The notes under the pieces: model-generated
The model's input: the letters and a program-made list of their open reading frames with translations, nothing else
Database searches by the model: none
What the model was told of the DNA's origin: nothing
Origin: a virus
Taxonomy: Duplodnaviria; Caudoviricetes
Virus record (IMG/VR): IMGVR_UViG_3300031555_006395
Location: 1 to 64,000 of that record
Reading direction: 5' to 3' (one strand)
DNA: 64,000 bases
Position numbers and translations under genes: made by a program
Shown: positions 55,447-61,688 of the stretch, one piece after another
How the letters are laid out: every line of letters starts with the position of its first letter
Numbering within the stretch: the stretch's first letter is position 1

Positions 55447-55788
55447 ATGGAAACAATTAAACGAGGAGATATTTATTATGCAGATCTTAGCCCCGTTGTT
55501 GGATCTGAGCAGGGAGGGACCAGACCAGTAATTGTATTACAAAACAATACCGGCAACCGTTTTTCTCCAACAATTATCGTTGCTCCGTTTACCAGTAATA
55601 AAGGGAAAAAGATGCTGCCAACACATCTTTTGATGAAAAGCGAAGAAACGGGATTGCCGAAGGATTCCATCGTCCTGCTCGAACAGGTGAGATCAATCGA
55701 TAAAAGTCGATTGGTTAGCGAAAACGTTGGAAAGATTCGGAATTTGGATACTTTAAATGAAATCATTAAAGTAGCTTTTTTTGGGTAA
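55447..55788 (+). CDS. mazF: MazF/PemK endoribonuclease (NdoA-like), no adjacent antitoxin
   Basis: KRGDIYYADLSPVVGSEQGGTRPV...NRFSPT...LLEQVRSIDKSRL. Confidence 0.95.
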   Translation: METIKRGDIYYADLSPVVGSEQGGTRPVIVLQNNTGNRFSPTIIVAPFTSNKGKKMLPTHLLMKSEETGLPKDSIVLLEQVRSIDKSRLVSENVGKIRNLDTLNEIIKVAFFG

Positions 55789-55848: not shown

Positions 55849-55940
55849 GGGAAGTTGGCTGAGTGGTTGAAAGCGGCGGTCTTGAAAACCGCTGATGGAG
55901 TCAAATCCATCCGAGGGTTCGAATCCCCCACTTCCCGCCA
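55849..55940 (+). tRNA. tRNA-Ser(TGA)
   Basis: Long variable arm, CT-TGA-AA loop, G73, CCA. Confidence 0.95.
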
Positions 55941-55943
55941 AAT

Positions 55944-56019
55944 GCGGTCGTAGCTCAAATGGCGGAGCATCTGCCTTCCAAGCAGAGGGTTGCGAGTTCG
56001 ATTCTCGTCGGCCGCTCCA
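55944..56019 (+). tRNA. tRNA-Gly(TCC)
   Basis: CT-TCC-AA loop, CCA. Confidence 0.95.
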
Positions 56020-56038
56020 ATAACAAGGGAGGGTTAAT

Positions 56039-56908
56039 ATGAAAATTCAGTCCTTATCGGTTGTAGTACCGGCAAAACAATGCATTAATAATTGTAAATT
56101 TTGTGTAGCCAGAATGAAAGAAGAGCCCTATAAAAATCAATTCGATGCAAATCTTCCGTTTTATCATCTCTATCAGGATGATTACTTAAAACGATTGGCA
56201 TTTGCTAGAGATAATGGTTGTAATACGGTGATGCTTACCGGCAATGCTGAGCCGCAACAGAATAGAGCTTTTCTAAAAGATTTTGGAACACTAAACAGAC
56301 AATTGGAAAGACCCTTCCGATGGATAGAGATGCAGACCACAGGGAGATTGTTGGATGATCCGTATCTTAGATTTTTAAGAAACCATGTGGGTGTTTCTAC
56401 AATTTCGCTCTCAATTTGCTCCTTTGATGATATAAAAAACGGAGAAATCTGCCAAATGAAAGAACCTGTGGATCTGCATTATCTCTGCCATGAAATTAAA
56501 CGATATGATTTTAATCTTAGAATTTCTGTGAACTTAACCGATGCGTTCAACCATATGGGCGCAGAAGAAATTATTGATTATTGTAAAAATGAGTTGAAAG
56601 CAGATCAGATTACATTTCGTGTATTATATCAGTCTGATGGGAATACCGACCAAGATAAGTGGATTGATGAGCACGCTGCCAAACCAAAGCTAATTGAAGA
56701 AATCAAAGAATATATTCGGAGATTCGGCAGACCTTTGGAACGTTTGGTTTTTGGCGCAATGAAATATTCGATTAAGGGAATGTCTGTTGTTTTGGACGAT
56801 GATTGTATGGCTACAGCGACAGATAAAGAAGAGCTGAAATACTTAATCCTTCGTCCTAATTGTAAACTTTATAGTAAGTGGGATGATCCGGCAAGTTTGA
56901 TTTTTTAG
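56039..56908 (+). CDS. Radical SAM protein
   Basis: CINNCKFC (CxxxCxxC); MLTGNAEP. Confidence 0.88.
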   Translation: MKIQSLSVVVPAKQCINNCKFCVARMKEEPYKNQFDANLPFYHLYQDDYLKRLAFARDNGCNTVMLTGNAEPQQNRAFLKDFGTLNRQLERPFRWIEMQTTGRLLDDPYLRFLRNHVGVSTISLSICSFDDIKNGEICQMKEPVDLHYLCHEIKRYDFNLRISVNLTDAFNHMGAEEIIDYCKNELKADQITFRVLYQSDGNTDQDKWIDEHAAKPKLIEEIKEYIRRFGRPLERLVFGAMKYSIKGMSVVLDDDCMATATDKEELKYLILRPNCKLYSKWDDPASLIF

Positions 56909-56916
56909 GGGGATTT

Positions 56917-57189
56917 ATGATGTTGACGAATTATGATGTTATTAAATCTATGAGCGGAAAAGATCTTCAATTATTTTTAGATGTTGTTTATTGTGCCGGC
57001 TTAAATATTGGCGGTTATGCCGCGACTCTTCCGGAAGGTGAACAATGCGAAATCCTCGCTGATTCTCCTTTTAATGACTGGCTCTTTGAAGCTGCTGAAG
57101 AAGCGTTTGGGGTTGATGGAAATTGTTATTGCAAACCATACTTAAAAACTGTTATGAAAGCTGCGAGGATTCAAGATGACGAAAATTGA
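56917..57189 (+). CDS. Small hypothetical protein
   Basis: MTNYDxIKSM start pattern; GGGGG site. Confidence 0.6.
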   Translation: MMLTNYDVIKSMSGKDLQLFLDVVYCAGLNIGGYAATLPEGEQCEILADSPFNDWLFEAAEEAFGVDGNCYCKPYLKTVMKAARIQDDEN

Positions 57190-57439
57190 AGAAAGTTTTT
57201 TTGAAGCGCTTCGTTATGCTGCAGATCGCGATATGTTGGTAAACATACAAACATATAAAGGAAAATTCTTTTGCCATGTCCAATATGATAAAAAAATAGA
57301 AGGATATGCAGGTTTTTCTCACAATCATTCTTTTCAAGAACAAGATTTGAATCTGATAAACCTGATACATTCGATTCGTTCTTCTACGGATATGATTTTA
57401 GAAAGAGTTAAGTTAAGTCAGCAATTAGATCATGATTAA
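57176..57439 (+). CDS. Small hypothetical protein
   Basis: Coupled to the upstream gene. Confidence 0.55.
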   Translation: MTKIEESFFEALRYAADRDMLVNIQTYKGKFFCHVQYDKKIEGYAGFSHNHSFQEQDLNLINLIHSIRSSTDMILERVKLSQQLDHD

Positions 57440-57557
57440 AAATTTGGTGCTGTTTTTACATAACAGTTAAATGTCCAGTAAGGCTAAATATCATATGGAG
57501 TCGCCAAGTGATCCGTGATAATCCTAAATGGTATAAAAGAGGAAACAGCCAATTTAT

Positions 57558-57636
57558 GCACCATTAGCTCAGTTGGTTAGAGCAGCGGCCTTATAAGCCG
57601 TGTTTGTCCAGAGTTCGAATCTCTGATGGTGTACCA
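57558..57636 (+). tRNA. tRNA-Ile(TAT) copy 1
   Basis: GCGGC-CTTATAA-GCCGT, enlarged variable loop, CCA. Confidence 0.88.
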
Positions 57637-57762
57637 ACCTCTCACTTGATTAGCTGCTAGGAGAGTGAGTCTCATTGCGTGAAGGCTACATGATGAATGA
57701 GGGTGTAAGCTAAGGAAAACCTTACAATGGATAGGTACCATAACAAATCCTGTCCACCTTAT

Positions 57763-57837
57763 GGAGATAAAAGGGACTCATAAGGCTGACGAAAAGTGTA
57801 GGCACTGAGGGTGGCTCGACTCCACCTATCTCCACAA
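57763..57837 (+). ncRNA. tRNA-like / tmRNA-TLD-like mini RNA
   Basis: 7-bp acceptor GGAGATA/TATCTCC, T arm GGTGG-CTCGACT-CCACC, no canonical D or anticodon arm, ends ACAA. Confidence 0.55.
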
Positions 57838-57841
57838 ATAC

Positions 57842-57915
57842 TGTCAGTTAGTATAAAGGTAGTACACAAGACTTTGACTCTTGTAGAGTGGGTTCGAGTC
57901 CTACACTGACAACCA
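57842..57915 (+). tRNA. tRNA-Gln(TTG) copy 1
   Basis: CAAGA-CTTTGAC-TCTTG, T1-A72, CCA. Confidence 0.9.
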
Positions 57916-57916
57916 A

Positions 57917-58074
57917 TTGGTCTATGTTGTTATCTGAACGATAGAGACCTGTCCTCGTAGTACAGCATCGAGTGGGGAACGACAAGCCTACACGTTGAAT
58001 AGTGTTCGTACAGGTGTTTTGTTGAACAAGCAGTAGGTTAAGAATAAACACCGTGGGAACTACGAGAGTGCCAA
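57917..58074 (+). ncRNA. Candidate structured RNA with pseudoknot
   Basis: CTCGTAGT/ACTACGAG, GGTGTTT/AAACACC, GCCTAC/GTAGGT. Confidence 0.5.
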
Positions 58075-58078
58075 ATAT

Positions 58079-58153
58079 ATTGGTGTAGTTTATCTGGTAA
58101 AACGGCGGTCTCCAAAACCGTTGATGAGAGTTCGAGTCTCTCCACCTTAGCCA
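58079..58153 (+). tRNA. tRNA-Trp(CCA) with a broken acceptor stem
   Basis: Intact D, anticodon and T arms and CCA; pairs 1-3 of the acceptor are mismatched (ATT vs TTA). Confidence 0.75.
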
Positions 58154-58290
58154 GTGGGGGCAGAGAGCAAATGTCCACCAGCCCCAGTGTCAAGTGAACA
58201 AAATAGCATTAATTGTGCACGTTAATGTTATTAGTAGCAAGACAGGCCAAGAGAGGTGGGATGTGTGGTTGCCGGTGAATCCTAAAACCG
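58154..58290 (+). ncRNA. Candidate structured RNA
   Basis: GGGGC/GCCCC, 11-bp AATAGCATTAA/TTAATGTTATT, TCCACC/GGTGGG pseudoknot, CGGT/ACCG. Confidence 0.45.
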
Positions 58291-58297
58291 AAGATAC

Positions 58298-58373
58298 GCA
58301 CCACTAACTCAATGGTTAGAGTACCCGGCTTATATCCGGTTAGTTCAAGGTTCGAGTCCTTGGTGGTGTACCA
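58298..58373 (+). tRNA. tRNA-Ile(TAT) copy 2
   Basis: CCGG-CTTATAT-CCGG, CCA. Confidence 0.88.
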
Positions 58374-58384
58374 ACATACTTCTT

Positions 58385-58450
58385 ATATCATGTTCCTTTC
58401 ATTTTCATGTTGACAAATCGGAAAGACGGTTGACGGTGGGACAGACCACA
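58385..58450 (+). ncRNA. Candidate sRNA: pyrimidine tract plus twin hairpins
   Basis: TTCCTTTC then ATCG-GAAAGA-CGGT and GTGG-GACAGA-CCAC. Confidence 0.45.
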
Positions 58451-58455
58451 ACTAT

Positions 58456-58531
58456 GTCCTTGTAGCCCAACGGCAGAGGCAGAAGTCTCAAAAACTTCTT
58501 AGTGTGGGTTCGAATCCCACCAAGGACACCA
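58456..58531 (+). tRNA. tRNA-Leu(CAA), short variable arm
   Basis: GAAGT-CTCAAAA-ACTTC, CCA. Confidence 0.9.
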
Positions 58532-58549
58532 ATTCTCCGTGGACATAAT

Positions 58550-58966
58550 AATCGGATGGGTTTTAGGAGGTCCATAAACGAAGCCCCTCAAGCCAAAATG
58601 TTGTAATTGCGGACAGATAATATCACTGCCCAAAAGTTTGGTATTTGATGATATTCGTGGAAGCTACGATAGTGTCAACTTCCCAACATACTCTCATGCG
58701 TGGGTGAAATAAGAAGAGAGAGCGTGGAAACTACGTAAGTGCCAATCACAGCTAAGACTTTGACCGAAGCAACCCAAAAACTTTGGCAGATGTAACAGCT
58801 GTACTATTTGGATAGCTTCCAAATGATGTGTGAGATTATCGGCTTACCACACAGAGAATGAAAATGTCCGCTGAAAACTGCGGAGCAATCGGGTATACAC
58901 GGTTGTTTGCGAACGAAACCTTTACTCTCAAATAGACGATGTGACAATCTAAGCGGGAAGCCGATT
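58550..58966 (+). ncRNA. Candidate large ornate ncRNA (~415 nt)
   Basis: Closing AATCGG/CCGATT, long-range GCGGACA/TGTCCGC and CTGCC..AAAGTTT/AAACTTTGGCAG, several local hairpins, no credible ORF. Confidence 0.6.
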
Positions 58967-58971
58967 TATAT

Positions 58972-59048
58972 GCTCCCATAGTCCAATTGGCAGAGACAGA
59001 GGACTTAAAATCCTTACAGTGTGGGTTCGAATCCCACTGGGAGTACCA
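58972..59048 (+). tRNA. tRNA-Leu(TAA), short variable arm
   Basis: GAGGA-CTTAAAA-TCCTT, CCA. Confidence 0.9.
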
Positions 59049-59163
59049 TATCATTAAATCACCAGTCGAACAAAGGAAAGCCTTTAGTGGGTCGTGAGTT
59101 ACCTTAAGATCCTATTTAGCGGTTGAGAAAAGCGAAGTACAAGCCAGGTGAGCCGCCATATAT

Positions 59164-59238
59164 TCTGGGTTGGTGTAATTGGTAACACAACGGACTTTGG
59201 ATCCGTTATTGGGAGTTCGAATCTTCTACCCAGAACCA
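59164..59238 (+). tRNA. tRNA-Gln(TTG) copy 2
   Basis: ACGGA-CTTTGGA-TCCGT, T1-A72, CCA. Confidence 0.88.
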
Positions 59239-59263: not shown

Positions 59264-59494
59264 ATGGCAATGAAACCGCAACAGTTACAAGAGTTTGAAA
59301 AAATGGTGCATGACAAAATGAAACAGGTATACAACGATGGAATGACTGTGGGCGCAAAAGCAATTATGTCTGCTATTAATGATATGATTGAGCGTGGAAA
59401 AGGTCGGCCTTGCAAAATGATTCTTTCTGAAATCAAAAGCTTTGTCAGCACCGCCGTAAGGGAGGAAAACGATGAGAATACTTCTGCTTCTTAG
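59264..59494 (+). CDS. Small hypothetical protein
   Basis: AGGAGG site. Confidence 0.7.
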   Translation: MAMKPQQLQEFEKMVHDKMKQVYNDGMTVGAKAIMSAINDMIERGKGRPCKMILSEIKSFVSTAVREENDENTSAS

Positions 59495-61688
59495 AGGTAG
59501 TCCTGGTTGTGGAAAAACGACTTGGATTGAAAAAAATGGTTTAAAACCATACACTCTGTCTGCCGACGATATTCGCATGATGTGCCAAAGCCCAATTTTA
59601 ACTGTTAATGGCGGCGAAGCAATTGATCAAACGAACGATAAATTGGTTTGGCAGACATTATTTAAATTACTTGAAAATCGAATGGAAAAGGGCGCTTTCA
59701 CGGTAATCGATGCAACAAATTCTAAAACGACTGAAATGAATCGGTATAAAACTTTATGTGAGACATATCGCTATCGTATTTATTGTGTCGATTTTACTGA
59801 TATCCCTATTGATGAAGCAAAACGCAGAAATAAATGCCGTCCTTTATCGAAAGTCGTTCCTGAAGAAGTAATCGATAAAATGTATTCCAGATTTGCAACT
59901 CAGAAAATACCCTCTGGCATTAAAGTAATTCGTCCTGACGAATTAGACTCTATTTGGATCCACAAAATTGATCTTTCGCAATACAATAAAGTCCATATGA
60001 TTGGCGATATTCATGGGTGTTGCACTGTATTAAAAGAATATATGGATGCAAATTGGAATGAAAATGATTTTTATATTTTTTGCGGAGATTATATCGATCG
60101 TGGCATTGAGAACGTACAGGTAATTAATTATCTGCTTTCTATTTATACCAAGCCTAATGTTTTATTATTAGAGGGTAACCATGAACGATGGCTTCAGATA
60201 TATGCTCATGGAGGAGCAACCAGGTCACAAGAATTTGAAACGCATACAAGAGCCCAGTTAGATGCAGCCAATTTCGACAATCGACAGCTCCGGCAGCTAT
60301 ACAGGAAACTTGGACAATGCGCTTACTTTTCCTTCGGTGACTACACTTATCTTGTAACGCATGGTGGCTTAAGCCAAATTCCAATCAATCTCAGTTTAGT
60401 TCCTACACATCAAATGATTCATGGAGTTGGCAGCTACAGTGATTATGAAAAGGTTGCCGACACTTTTTATTATTGTACCCCTGAGAAAACCTATCAGGTT
60501 TTTGGGCATCGAAATATTAAAAATGCTCCTATTCAATTAAACGATAAAGTATTTGATCTCGAAGGTGGAGTTGAGTTTGGCGGATCTTTGCGATGTGTCC
60601 AATTTGCGAAAGATGGATCTTTTGAAACATTTTCAATAAAGAATAATGTGTATCGTCAAACTGAATCAAAACCTCAAGAGGTATCGAATAATAAAACCGT
60701 TGCCGACATTATTGTTGAGTTCCGAAATAATAAGTATATCAAGGAAAAGAAGTTTGGTAATATATCATCTTTTAACTTTACCCCTACAGCGTTTTATGAA
60801 AAGATTTGGGATTCTCAAACTATTAAGGCCAGAGGACTATATATCGATATTGAAAAACAAAAAGTAGTTGCACGCAGCTATGAAAAGTTTTTTAGAATTA
60901 ACGAGCGGCCGGAAACGAAGTTGGAGATGTTGCAGTATAAACTTCAATTTCCAATTAGCATTTATGTTAAAGAAAATGGATTTTTGGGAATTGTTAGCTA
61001 CGACGAGTATAAAGATGATCTGTTTGTAACAACGAAATCTGATCCTACCGGTGATTACGCAGAATGGTTAAAGGCTATGTTATGCGAGAAATTATCGGAT
61101 CAACAGAGATTACAGTTAAAGGAATACTGCAAACAGCATAATGTTTCCTTTATTTTCGAATGTGTTGATATGAAAAACGATCCTCATATCATCGAGTACC
61201 AAGACAATCAACTGTATTTGTTGGACATTATAAAAAACGCAATTACATTTGAAAAATTGCCATATGAGGATCTTTGTCATGTTGGTCATAGTATTGGACT
61301 GCTTGTTAAAACGAAAGCTTGCGATATATGCACTTGGCAGGAGTTTTACGATTGGTATCATGAGGTCAACTTAGAGGATTATGAATATAATGGCGCACCG
61401 GTCGAGGGTTTTGTTATTGAGGATTCGAAAGGATATATGGTAAAGGTAAAACTTCATTATTATAACTTTTGGAAATTCATGAGAGGCATCTCCCATGAAA
61501 CCCTTCGGAAAGGATATATTTCAAAAACATCTTCATTAACATCAGCGCTGGCGAATCAATACTACGGGTGGCTTAAATCTATTTATGATCCACAGAATCG
61601 TGATCAAATACCGAAAGATATTATTACATTAAGAAAAATGTTTTATATCGCAATGGCTGAAAAGGAGGGGTTTTCCAATGATTGTTAA
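59472..61688 (+). CDS. RNA repair enzyme: polynucleotide kinase + metallophosphatase + Rnl1-type ligase
   Basis: GSPGCGKT P-loop and DATN; GDIHG, GDYIDRG, GNHE; ligase KENG, FE, EGFVI and VKVK. Confidence 0.92.
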   Translation: MRILLLLRGSPGCGKTTWIEKNGLKPYTLSADDIRMMCQSPILTVNGGEAIDQTNDKLVWQTLFKLLENRMEKGAFTVIDATNSKTTEMNRYKTLCETYRYRIYCVDFTDIPIDEAKRRNKCRPLSKVVPEEVIDKMYSRFATQKIPSGIKVIRPDELDSIWIHKIDLSQYNKVHMIGDIHGCCTVLKEYMDANWNENDFYIFCGDYIDRGIENVQVINYLLSIYTKPNVLLLEGNHERWLQIYAHGGATRSQEFETHTRAQLDAANFDNRQLRQLYRKLGQCAYFSFGDYTYLVTHGGLSQIPINLSLVPTHQMIHGVGSYSDYEKVADTFYYCTPEKTYQVFGHRNIKNAPIQLNDKVFDLEGGVEFGGSLRCVQFAKDGSFETFSIKNNVYRQTESKPQEVSNNKTVADIIVEFRNNKYIKEKKFGNISSFNFTPTAFYEKIWDSQTIKARGLYIDIEKQKVVARSYEKFFRINERPETKLEMLQYKLQFPISIYVKENGFLGIVSYDEYKDDLFVTTKSDPTGDYAEWLKAMLCEKLSDQQRLQLKEYCKQHNVSFIFECVDMKNDPHIIEYQDNQLYLLDIIKNAITFEKLPYEDLCHVGHSIGLLVKTKACDICTWQEFYDWYHEVNLEDYEYNGAPVEGFVIEDSKGYMVKVKLHYYNFWKFMRGISHETLRKGYISKTSSLTSALANQYYGWLKSIYDPQNRDQIPKDIITLRKMFYIAMAEKEGFSNDC

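Follow-up and report, generated by a model that had tools for sequence, protein, structure and literature searches.

A small pseudoknotted RNA family set flush behind tRNA genes in phages of gut and rumen Clostridia

Structured RNAs other than tRNA have been a known kind of component of phage tRNA clusters since species 1 and species 2 RNA of phage T4 (rnaC, 139 nt, and rnaD, 119 nt), which stand in line with the tRNA genes, are co-transcribed with them and still have no explained function. GOLLD and ROOL are likewise structured RNAs without assigned function, often located in prophages near tRNA genes, and ROOL is also found in rumen and gut Firmicutes. In MALAT1 mascRNA, the TMERs of murine gammaherpesvirus 68 and mitochondrial tRNA punctuation, a tRNA or tRNA-like fold lets RNase P and RNase Z set the ends of the adjoining RNA. 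Here we describe a tRNA array in a member of Caudoviricetes, IMG/VR virus record IMGVR_UViG_3300031555_006395 (81.7 kb; its first 64 kb, positions 1 to 64,000, are called the window), and in particular the interval 58532-58971 (440 nt) between tRNA-Leu(caa) and tRNA-Leu(taa). Sequence comparison indicates that the interval begins with a new, well-supported RNA family of this known general kind without a match in Rfam 15 (module A), which is followed by two short segments (B and C1) and by module C2, a second family that is rarer than module A. We consider it likely, at a probability of about 0.6, that the interval is a run of separate small structured RNAs in a polycistronic tRNA array, which are cut out by tRNA-processing enzymes.

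A preliminary description had treated 58550-58966 as one ornate non-coding RNA of ~415 nt between two tRNA-Leu genes, and had suggested an Rfam search and a collection of homologues as checks. ARAGORN places the gap between two tRNA-Leu genes of a phage tRNA cluster as described, a credible ORF is absent from it, and all sequence elements that had been named are found at their coordinates by script. The Rfam search, run on 58532-58971 at the gathering threshold and again at E up to 10, gave no family match, and neither ARAGORN nor Rfam called a tRNA, tmRNA or RNase P RNA inside this interval. In addition, blastn in distant mode found no DNA similar to the 440-nt interval among GenBank phages. 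The collection of homologues yielded the family of module A, in which covariation supports helices P1, Pa and P5 and two pseudoknots.

A scan of IMG/VR with a 23-nt motif led to loci whose ~110 nt upstream resemble window 58550-58655, and a second IMG/VR scan with a conserved core word led to 28 loci (loci are cited by L numbers). A covariance model of the core, CM R1, was built in this analysis from P3, Pa, P5 and the terminal hairpin. It matches the window at 58550-58673 over the full model (1-123) with 60.7 bits and E 1.7e-13, and this match is the sole one in the window and in the whole record. Moreover, CM R1 matched 25 distinct sequences in IMG/VR (46-135 bits) and gave 15 strong matches in GTDB genome contigs, and a later IMG/VR scan added 3 members. 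The family thus comprises about 44 distinct members from IMG/VR and from prophages in metagenome-assembled genomes (MAGs) of Clostridia, with lengths of 147-250 nt, the window copy having 147 nt. The GTDB carriers are almost all Clostridia (Oscillospiraceae or Eubacteriales MAGs) from rumen and gut, the exceptions being one Prevotella MAG and one "Alphaproteobacteria" MAG. Module A is present once per record in 5/5 phage records (3 of them at least 90% complete) and once in 5/5 MAGs. In a sample of 150 genomes from the order to which one host MAG belongs, only 1 further carrier is found, and this sporadic occurrence fits a prophage-borne element. Eight loci with other members gave no match for module A in Rfam at E up to 1. 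Parts of module A may be among the ~8,500 candidate structured RNAs, all unnamed, of a 2023 catalogue made from IMG/VR (PMC10690425).

In nearly all members, module A starts flush with the NCCA of the tRNA or tRNA-like gene that lies upstream. In the window, the terminal A of tRNA-Leu(caa) at 58531 directly precedes the conserved AUUCUCCGUGGAC start, and ATTCTCCGTGGAC begins at 58532. In L004 and L007, module A is the entire 173-nt spacer from tRNA-Gln to tRNA-Ile. The window copy is atypical in that segments B, C1 and C2 stand behind it, where most members have the next tRNA.

The fold of module A consists of nested helices and two pseudoknots (Table 1). In a model-guided alignment, pairing covers 93% of the cells of the nested helices and double changes are seen at 12 pairs; 0/500 shuffles matched this, and pairing falls to 33-50% when the partner columns are shifted by 1-3. 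P1 joins NCCG, five bases past the upstream CCA, to CGGN just 5' of P3. Six pair classes occur in it, including the variants UGCG/CGCA, ACCG/CGGU, AGCG/CGCU, AACG/CGUU and UUCC/GGAA; its observed pairing was reached by 0/2000 shuffles, and RNAalifold recovers it independently. P1 encloses just 13 nt in the window, where the P2 insert between its strands is absent, and encloses a hairpin or a whole domain in other members: L004, L017 and L080 have a simple hairpin as P2, and in the long forms P2 has a 6-bp stem, in which 6/6 pairs covary, around two T-arm-like hairpins whose loops are UUCGAUU. The pairs of P3 are invariant and therefore give no covariation for or against it. Pa encloses a conserved GUAAUUGCGG, the P5 hairpin and CAAAAG.

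For PK2, GGAC/GUCC is invariant in most members and is replaced by GUAC at both sites in L111-L114, a double compensatory change. For PK1, an anchored test at homologous positions compared the P5 loop with the 5-7 nt abutting the terminal hairpin. It counted 14 distinct pairs of complementary words and found a perfect 5-mer match in 20/27 cognate sequences vs 4/316 non-cognate combinations. The window copy itself forms 4/4 pairs of P1, 7/7 of PK1 and 5/5 of PK2 (script check). The family has about 35 invariant positions, which are mostly unpaired. Its terminal hairpin is of type T1 in the window, L004, L005, L008 and L033, and of type T2 (GC-rich 5-bp stem, GAAAGA loop) in most GC-rich members, and the divergent subgroup of L012, L015 and L031 has a third type. 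In this subgroup the third type stands on both flanks of module A, as CCCGCCC, a 4-5-bp stem with AGCGNAU loop, and CCA.

Table 1. Features of the interval and its surroundings, with positions in the window.
Feature	Position	Strand	Description	Support
Stand-alone T1	58052..58074	+	ends 4 nt before tRNA-Trp (58079)	
T2-like hairpin	58410..58431	+	UUGACA then AAUCG-GAAAGA-CGGUU; 24 nt before tRNA-Leu(caa)	
tRNA-Leu(caa)	58456..58531	+		ARAGORN; Rfam tRNA 61.5 bits
Module A	58532..58678	+	minimal form without variable P2 insert	CM R1 match
P1	58536..58556	+	UCCG 58536-39 / CGGA 58553-56	covariation
PK2	58540..58574	+	UGGAC 58540-44 / GUCCA 58570-74 (in P3 loop)	compensatory change
P3	58558..58586	+	GGGUU 58558-62 / AGCCC 58582-86; highly conserved loop UUAGGAGGUCCAUAAACGA	alignment
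Pa	58592..58642	+	GCCAAA 58592-97 / UUUGGU 58637-42	5/5 modelled pairs covary
P5	58611..58631	+	GGACAG 58611-16 / CUGCCC 58626-31	5/5 modelled pairs covary
PK1	58619..58655	+	P5 loop AAUAUCA 58619-25 / UGAUAUU 58649-55, abutting terminal hairpin	anchored complementarity test
T1 copy 1	58656..58678	+	module A terminal hairpin: CGUGG-AAG-CUACG then AUAGUGUCAA	
Segment B	58679..58745	+	hairpin CUCUC 58691-95 / GAGAG 58718-22, then T1 copy 2 58723-58745	
C1 stem-loop	58748..58802	+	closed by ACAGCU 58748-53 / AGCUGU 58797-802	
Module C2	58803..58966	+	~165 nt	homologues; z = -2.9
Leader and tRNA-Leu(taa)	58967..59048	+	A/U-rich leader UAUAU 58967-71; tRNA 58972-59048	ARAGORN, Rfam

These results bear directly on the single-RNA reading, in which one ornate RNA of ~415-440 nt spans the whole gap, closed by the end pairing AATCGG 58550-55 / CCGATT 58961-66 and by two long-range helices, GCGGACA 58609-15 / TGTCCGC 58865-71 and CTGCC..AAAGTTT 58626-39 / AAACTTTGGCAG 58778-89. 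The complementary segments do exist, the 5+7-nt complement of 58626-39 and 58778-89 exceeds the typical length of chance matches, and the self-complementarity of the region is slightly elevated (about p = 0.05). Moreover, segment C folds well alone (58746-58971, 226 nt; z = -3.3, 0/200 shuffles as good). On the other hand, the interval has 33 perfect 6-mer inverted repeats vs 21.7 +/- 6.4 in dinucleotide shuffles, and 11 perfect 7-mer ones vs 5.4 +/- 2.8. Such repeats are roughly at chance level, so that single complements of 6-7 nt are to be expected. The whole 440-nt fold is no better than shuffles either (z = -1.0 on the + strand, -0.7 on the - strand), and for both reasons the long-range helices are unconvincing. 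In addition, all three helices use strands that are paired locally in the covarying fold of module A: AATCGG holds the 3' strand of P1, GCGGACA is the 5' strand of P5, CTGCC (58626-30) is the 3' strand of P5, and AAAGTTT (58633-39) extends into the 3' strand of Pa.

The distribution of the modules is still less favourable to one large RNA. About 44 other sequences hold module A with no C-like partner downstream of it; its members elsewhere have no downstream sequence available for the proposed pairing, and in L004 and L007 a tRNA stands directly behind it. Conversely, C2 is present without module A in L116, L118 and L120, where its CCGAU end (58961-65 in the window) keeps a local 8-bp partner, AUCGGCUU. 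The single-RNA reading is already largely refuted by this independent occurrence of modules A and C2, and we regard it as very improbable. What had been described as one RNA represents at least two independent families, each of which alone fills tRNA-to-tRNA spacers elsewhere. Real structure and the lack of an Rfam match remain from the suggestion of a structured RNA of a new class, while the idea of one large RNA has to be dropped from it.

The copies of C2 came from one metagenome scan and one IMG/VR scan: L116, L118 and L120 share 58809-58964 with the window at 96% identity over 156 nt, with unrelated flanks. In these loci C2 exactly fills the 173-nt spacer between tRNA-Ser(gct) and tRNA-Leu(cag), starting directly past CCA (292-464 in L118), and this is why we take it as a second independent module. 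In the window, its 5' neighbour is the C1 stem-loop and not a tRNA; in L116 and L118, tRNA-Ser occupies the place equivalent to C1. Two local hairpins had been pointed out here before. ATTTGGA 58806-12 / TCCAAAT 58818-24 is real, as it shows two compensatory changes in the three copies; TGTGTG 58827-32 / CACACA 58848-53 is present but unchanged in the homologues. The loop of the latter (GUGUG 58828-32 / CACAC 58848-52) contains AUCGGCUU at 58838-45, which pairs with AAGCCGAU at 58958-65 over 8 bp. As this partner lies within a hairpin loop, C2 is probably pseudoknotted as well. A further hairpin, UCCGC/GCGGA, is located at 58867-84. For 58746-58971, blastn and nhmmer of the window spacers found no relatives among the loci fetched before the metagenome scan, and a pattern search of IMG/VR built on the ATTTGGA hairpin gave 11 chance palindromes only.

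The 23-nt T1 motif CGTGGRARCTACGNNAGTGYCAA is present in 3 copies in the window (58052, 58656 and 58723) vs 0.01 expected. It corresponds to the repeated unit CGTGG-RRR-CTACG that had been noticed at 58656 and 58723, and its recurrence, far above chance, shows that the repeat is meaningful. T1 also stands alone 4-9 nt before tRNAs, counted from the CAA ending the motif, in the window (58052), L003, L004, L005 and L010, and 12-14 nt before ORF starts in L002 and L009. A variant in L014, GGCGG-GAA-CUGCC, has two stem pairs changed compensatorily with the G.U pair kept, which points to a hairpin at the RNA level on the + strand of the window. The T2-like hairpin at 58410-58431 is conserved in L003, L004, L007 and L014, and T2 itself is found 6-7 nt before tRNAs and odd tRNA-like genes throughout GC-rich arrays (L020, L024, L066). 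A sigma-70 promoter was considered for T2 and rejected: the TTGACA copy in the window has no properly spaced -10, and in GC-rich loci the start would fall inside the tRNA. Possible roles of T1 and T2 are punctuation of processing, protection of a 3' end, and binding of a protein at a nut-type site.

The last of these functions belongs to an alternative in which modules A, C2 and T1/T2 act in cis, either in antitermination in the style of lambda nut boxB or HK022 put, or as an exonuclease block protecting the array transcript. T1 and T2 are short conserved hairpins with purine-rich loops that are repeated along arrays before tRNAs and ORFs, and the module A of L005 has a sigma-70-like promoter upstream and is close to where a transcription unit begins. 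T2 (5-bp GC stem, GAAAGA loop) resembles lambda boxB, a possible lead. Lambda boxB shares with T1 and T2 a short 5-bp stem, a purine-rich loop, a conserved sequence and a place in untranslated phage transcripts; it differs from them in that the T2 loop has 6 nt (GAAAGA) and the T1 loop 3 nt, with a conserved G.U and an AUAGUGCCA tail in T1. No boxA or N-like protein was identified with T1/T2, and no antiterminator protein among window genes or neighbour genes. Moreover, the position of module A in the arrays varies, the window copy following the 7th of 9 tRNAs (ARAGORN) and not a promoter; one complex RNA of 150-250 nt per genome exceeds the needs of a nut or put site; and the flush boundaries suit a released RNA better. 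A cis-acting role of this kind is unlikely in our view.

Several side observations concern the surroundings of these hairpins. Many odd tRNA-like genes, each behind a T2 hairpin, occur in L020 (- strand), L024 (1405-1538), L023 (82-199) and L066. In these GC-rich arrays of Clostridia phages, such genes combine an acceptor stem and T arm with large insertions or with the lack of a normal anticodon arm; the Rfam tRNA model matches some of them over 118-134 nt, and ARAGORN misses most. In several GC-rich loci (L011, L025, L028, L030 and L032), the T2 of module A is followed by ~30 nt, a Shine-Dalgarno site and a conserved small ORF, which contains CPVCA...DPHD..SLYYQ...PTW.DAM.HC. In L015, a HEARO RNA (IscB-associated, 147 bits) is located at 530-742, ~250 nt downstream of a module A of the divergent subgroup.

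Concerning the 5' boundary, another alternative is that module A is a cis-acting catalytic RNA that cleaves itself at its 5' edge past CCA, so that host nucleases are not needed to free the tRNA 3' end. Cleavage at the 5' boundary is likewise seen in HDV-like and hatchet ribozymes. CCA-bearing precursors are poor substrates of RNase Z, so that an endonucleolytic cut is needed there, which counts for such an activity. The start of module A is nearly always flush at NCCA whatever tRNA or tRNA-like hairpin lies upstream, the junction AAUUCU is nearly invariant, and a compact double pseudoknot with many invariant, mostly unpaired positions is typical of ribozymes. On the other hand, no self-cleaving family of Rfam (hammerhead, twister, twister-sister, pistol, hatchet, HDV-like, glmS) matched the interval at E up to 10, none matched the loci of other members at E up to 1, and the L111-L114 subfamily sits behind a tRNA-like gene without CCA. 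Moreover, a tRNA left with a 2',3'-cyclic phosphate on its CCA could not be charged, and a T4 Rnl1-type ligase and RtcB are missing from 5 other carrier phages, end-healing kinase and phosphatase families lying outside this search. Self-cleavage at the 5' edge is therefore an unlikely, though coherent, account. The wider proposal that module A is a new self-cleaving or catalytic RNA class maturing tRNA 3' ends, with T1/T2 as the matching punctuation for the rest of the array, has a rather slim chance; if true, module A would free tRNA 3' ends independently of host nucleases.

We favour excision of separate small RNAs by tRNA-processing enzymes, for which the T4 species 1 and 2 RNAs are the closest precedent. 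T4 rnaD lies directly behind tRNA-Arg with CCA followed by AAU at the junction, as at module A, and both rnaC and rnaD are flush past CCA. The differences are that T4 is an E. coli phage and the phages here are those of Clostridia, that module A has two covarying pseudoknots, and that rnaC has a tRNA-like T arm at its end, whereas the module A of the window has none. In the T4 tRNA cluster (L121), CM R1 found no match at E up to 10, and by eye only short shared words are present. In T4 70908-71247 (L121), rnaD and rnaC start with AAUGAG and AAUUAUCG directly past CCA; these starts resemble the AAUUCU, AAUGCU and AAUACU starts of module A, which may reflect a shared 3'-processing signal. By analogy, the flush boundaries here suggest the same logic as tRNA-punctuated release in MALAT1, the TMERs and mitochondria, although those are eukaryotic or eukaryotic-virus systems without sequence relation and the processing here would be predicted from position.

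The likeness to GOLLD and ROOL that had been suggested for the gap does not extend to size or sequence. Neither has an Rfam match in 58532-58971 at the gathering threshold or E up to 10, or on the eight member loci at E up to 1. Their size is roughly 580-800 nt vs 147-250 nt for module A, and the comparison had arisen from a span of 415 nt that is made up of separate modules. Likenesses to RNase P RNA, SRP RNA, group I intron and tmRNA were also considered and set aside, as they consist of short shared words only with no model match, and a Y-RNA idea was dropped with the absence of TROVE/Ro60 from the record.

The following course of events would account for the modules. The array would be transcribed as one precursor, from which each module would be freed as a discrete small RNA by an RNase P cut at the tRNA behind it and by 3'-end processing of the tRNA before it, at the CCA; the RNase P cut at tRNA-Leu(taa) would then define the 3' end of C2. 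The terminal hairpin would shield the released module from 3' exonucleases, and the released RNA would act in trans on a tRNA- or translation-related target. The two T-arm-like hairpins of the long forms hint at a tRNA-related target, and the conserved pseudoknotted core must carry the function, since the window copy has no T-arm domain. The degree of conservation of module A suggests a specific biochemical job, either binding of a tRNA-related partner or catalysis.

Several points weigh against this proposal of released RNAs. The strict conservation of the junction between CCA and AUUCU, and of many unpaired bases, would be in keeping also with an RNA acting in cis or as a catalyst. The energy of the nested fold of module A is no better than that of shuffles (z = +0.2), which is unsurprising because the RNA is pseudoknotted, yet gives no support. 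Among all fetched loci, segment B has homologues for its T1 part only and none for its hairpin, and C1 has no homologue. The fold of C2 is weakly tested because its homologues are all near-identical. Clustering of neighbour genes found no partner protein common to all subfamilies of module A. Searches of 5 other carrier phages for T4-type RNA ligase and RtcB found neither, the ligase result being a weak negative as the ligase model is also silent in all control genomes.

The genes around the array suggest a further alternative, namely that module A is a tRNA mimic or decoy for a host tRNA-targeting nuclease or tRNA-modifying enzyme, as part of an island of nuclease, tRNA and repair genes. Nine + strand tRNA genes lie at 55849-59238 (ARAGORN and Rfam), the gap studied here being the largest between them. 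The array is flanked by a gene for a MazF/PemK toxin (55447-55788), a radical-SAM gene (56039-56908) and a 738-aa gene (59472-61688) that fuses kinase (AAA_33), metallophosphatase and T4 Rnl1-type RNA ligase domains. The toxin and fusion genes, and the two T-arm-like hairpins that the long forms carry in a tRNA-like three-way domain, speak for a decoy. However, the window copy and other short forms have no T-arm domain, so that this domain cannot be the core function, and no tRNA model matches module A. Nor are the repair and toxin genes a trait of the module A family. Neighbour genes differ among its subfamilies, the shared ones being replication-module genes within one phage clade (DUF1064, DUF3102, SSB, MazG). 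Homologues of the fusion gene in other phages (~60% identity) do not adjoin tRNA arrays: among 18 such loci, module A is found in 0/18, and tRNA genes in 0/8 scanned by ARAGORN. Similarly, of 16 loci with homologues of the radical-SAM gene, tRNA genes are present in 2 only, and none matches the spacer RNAs. A decoy function appears quite improbable.

Two further features of the array may be mentioned. Most of its tRNAs (57540-59163) are preceded by a similar leader ending in ..GCC(A/G)-(A/U)3-4-UAU, for example AGUGCCAAAUAU, ACAGCCAAUUUAU, GAAGCCGAUUUAUAU and GAGCCGCCAUAUAU. Moreover, a tRNA-sized RNA that is not called by ARAGORN lies at 57745-57837, with a 7-bp acceptor stem (GGAGATA/TATCTCC), a T arm and a weak tmRNA match (14.5 bits). 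A 57-nt core of it is found at 100% identity in L003 (3136-3213) behind a T1 motif, where it has a fully compensatory acceptor stem (GTGGATT/AATCCAC).

Finally, module A adds a well-defined family to the unexplained small RNAs of phage tRNA clusters, with two covarying pseudoknots, an optional T-arm-like domain and strict placement past CCA in phages of gut and rumen Clostridia. With 147 nt, it is compact enough for direct in vitro and structure work. T1 and T2 may serve phage tRNA arrays as a general punctuation signal. The interval also illustrates that long "ornate" spacers in tRNA arrays can be concatenated independent modules.

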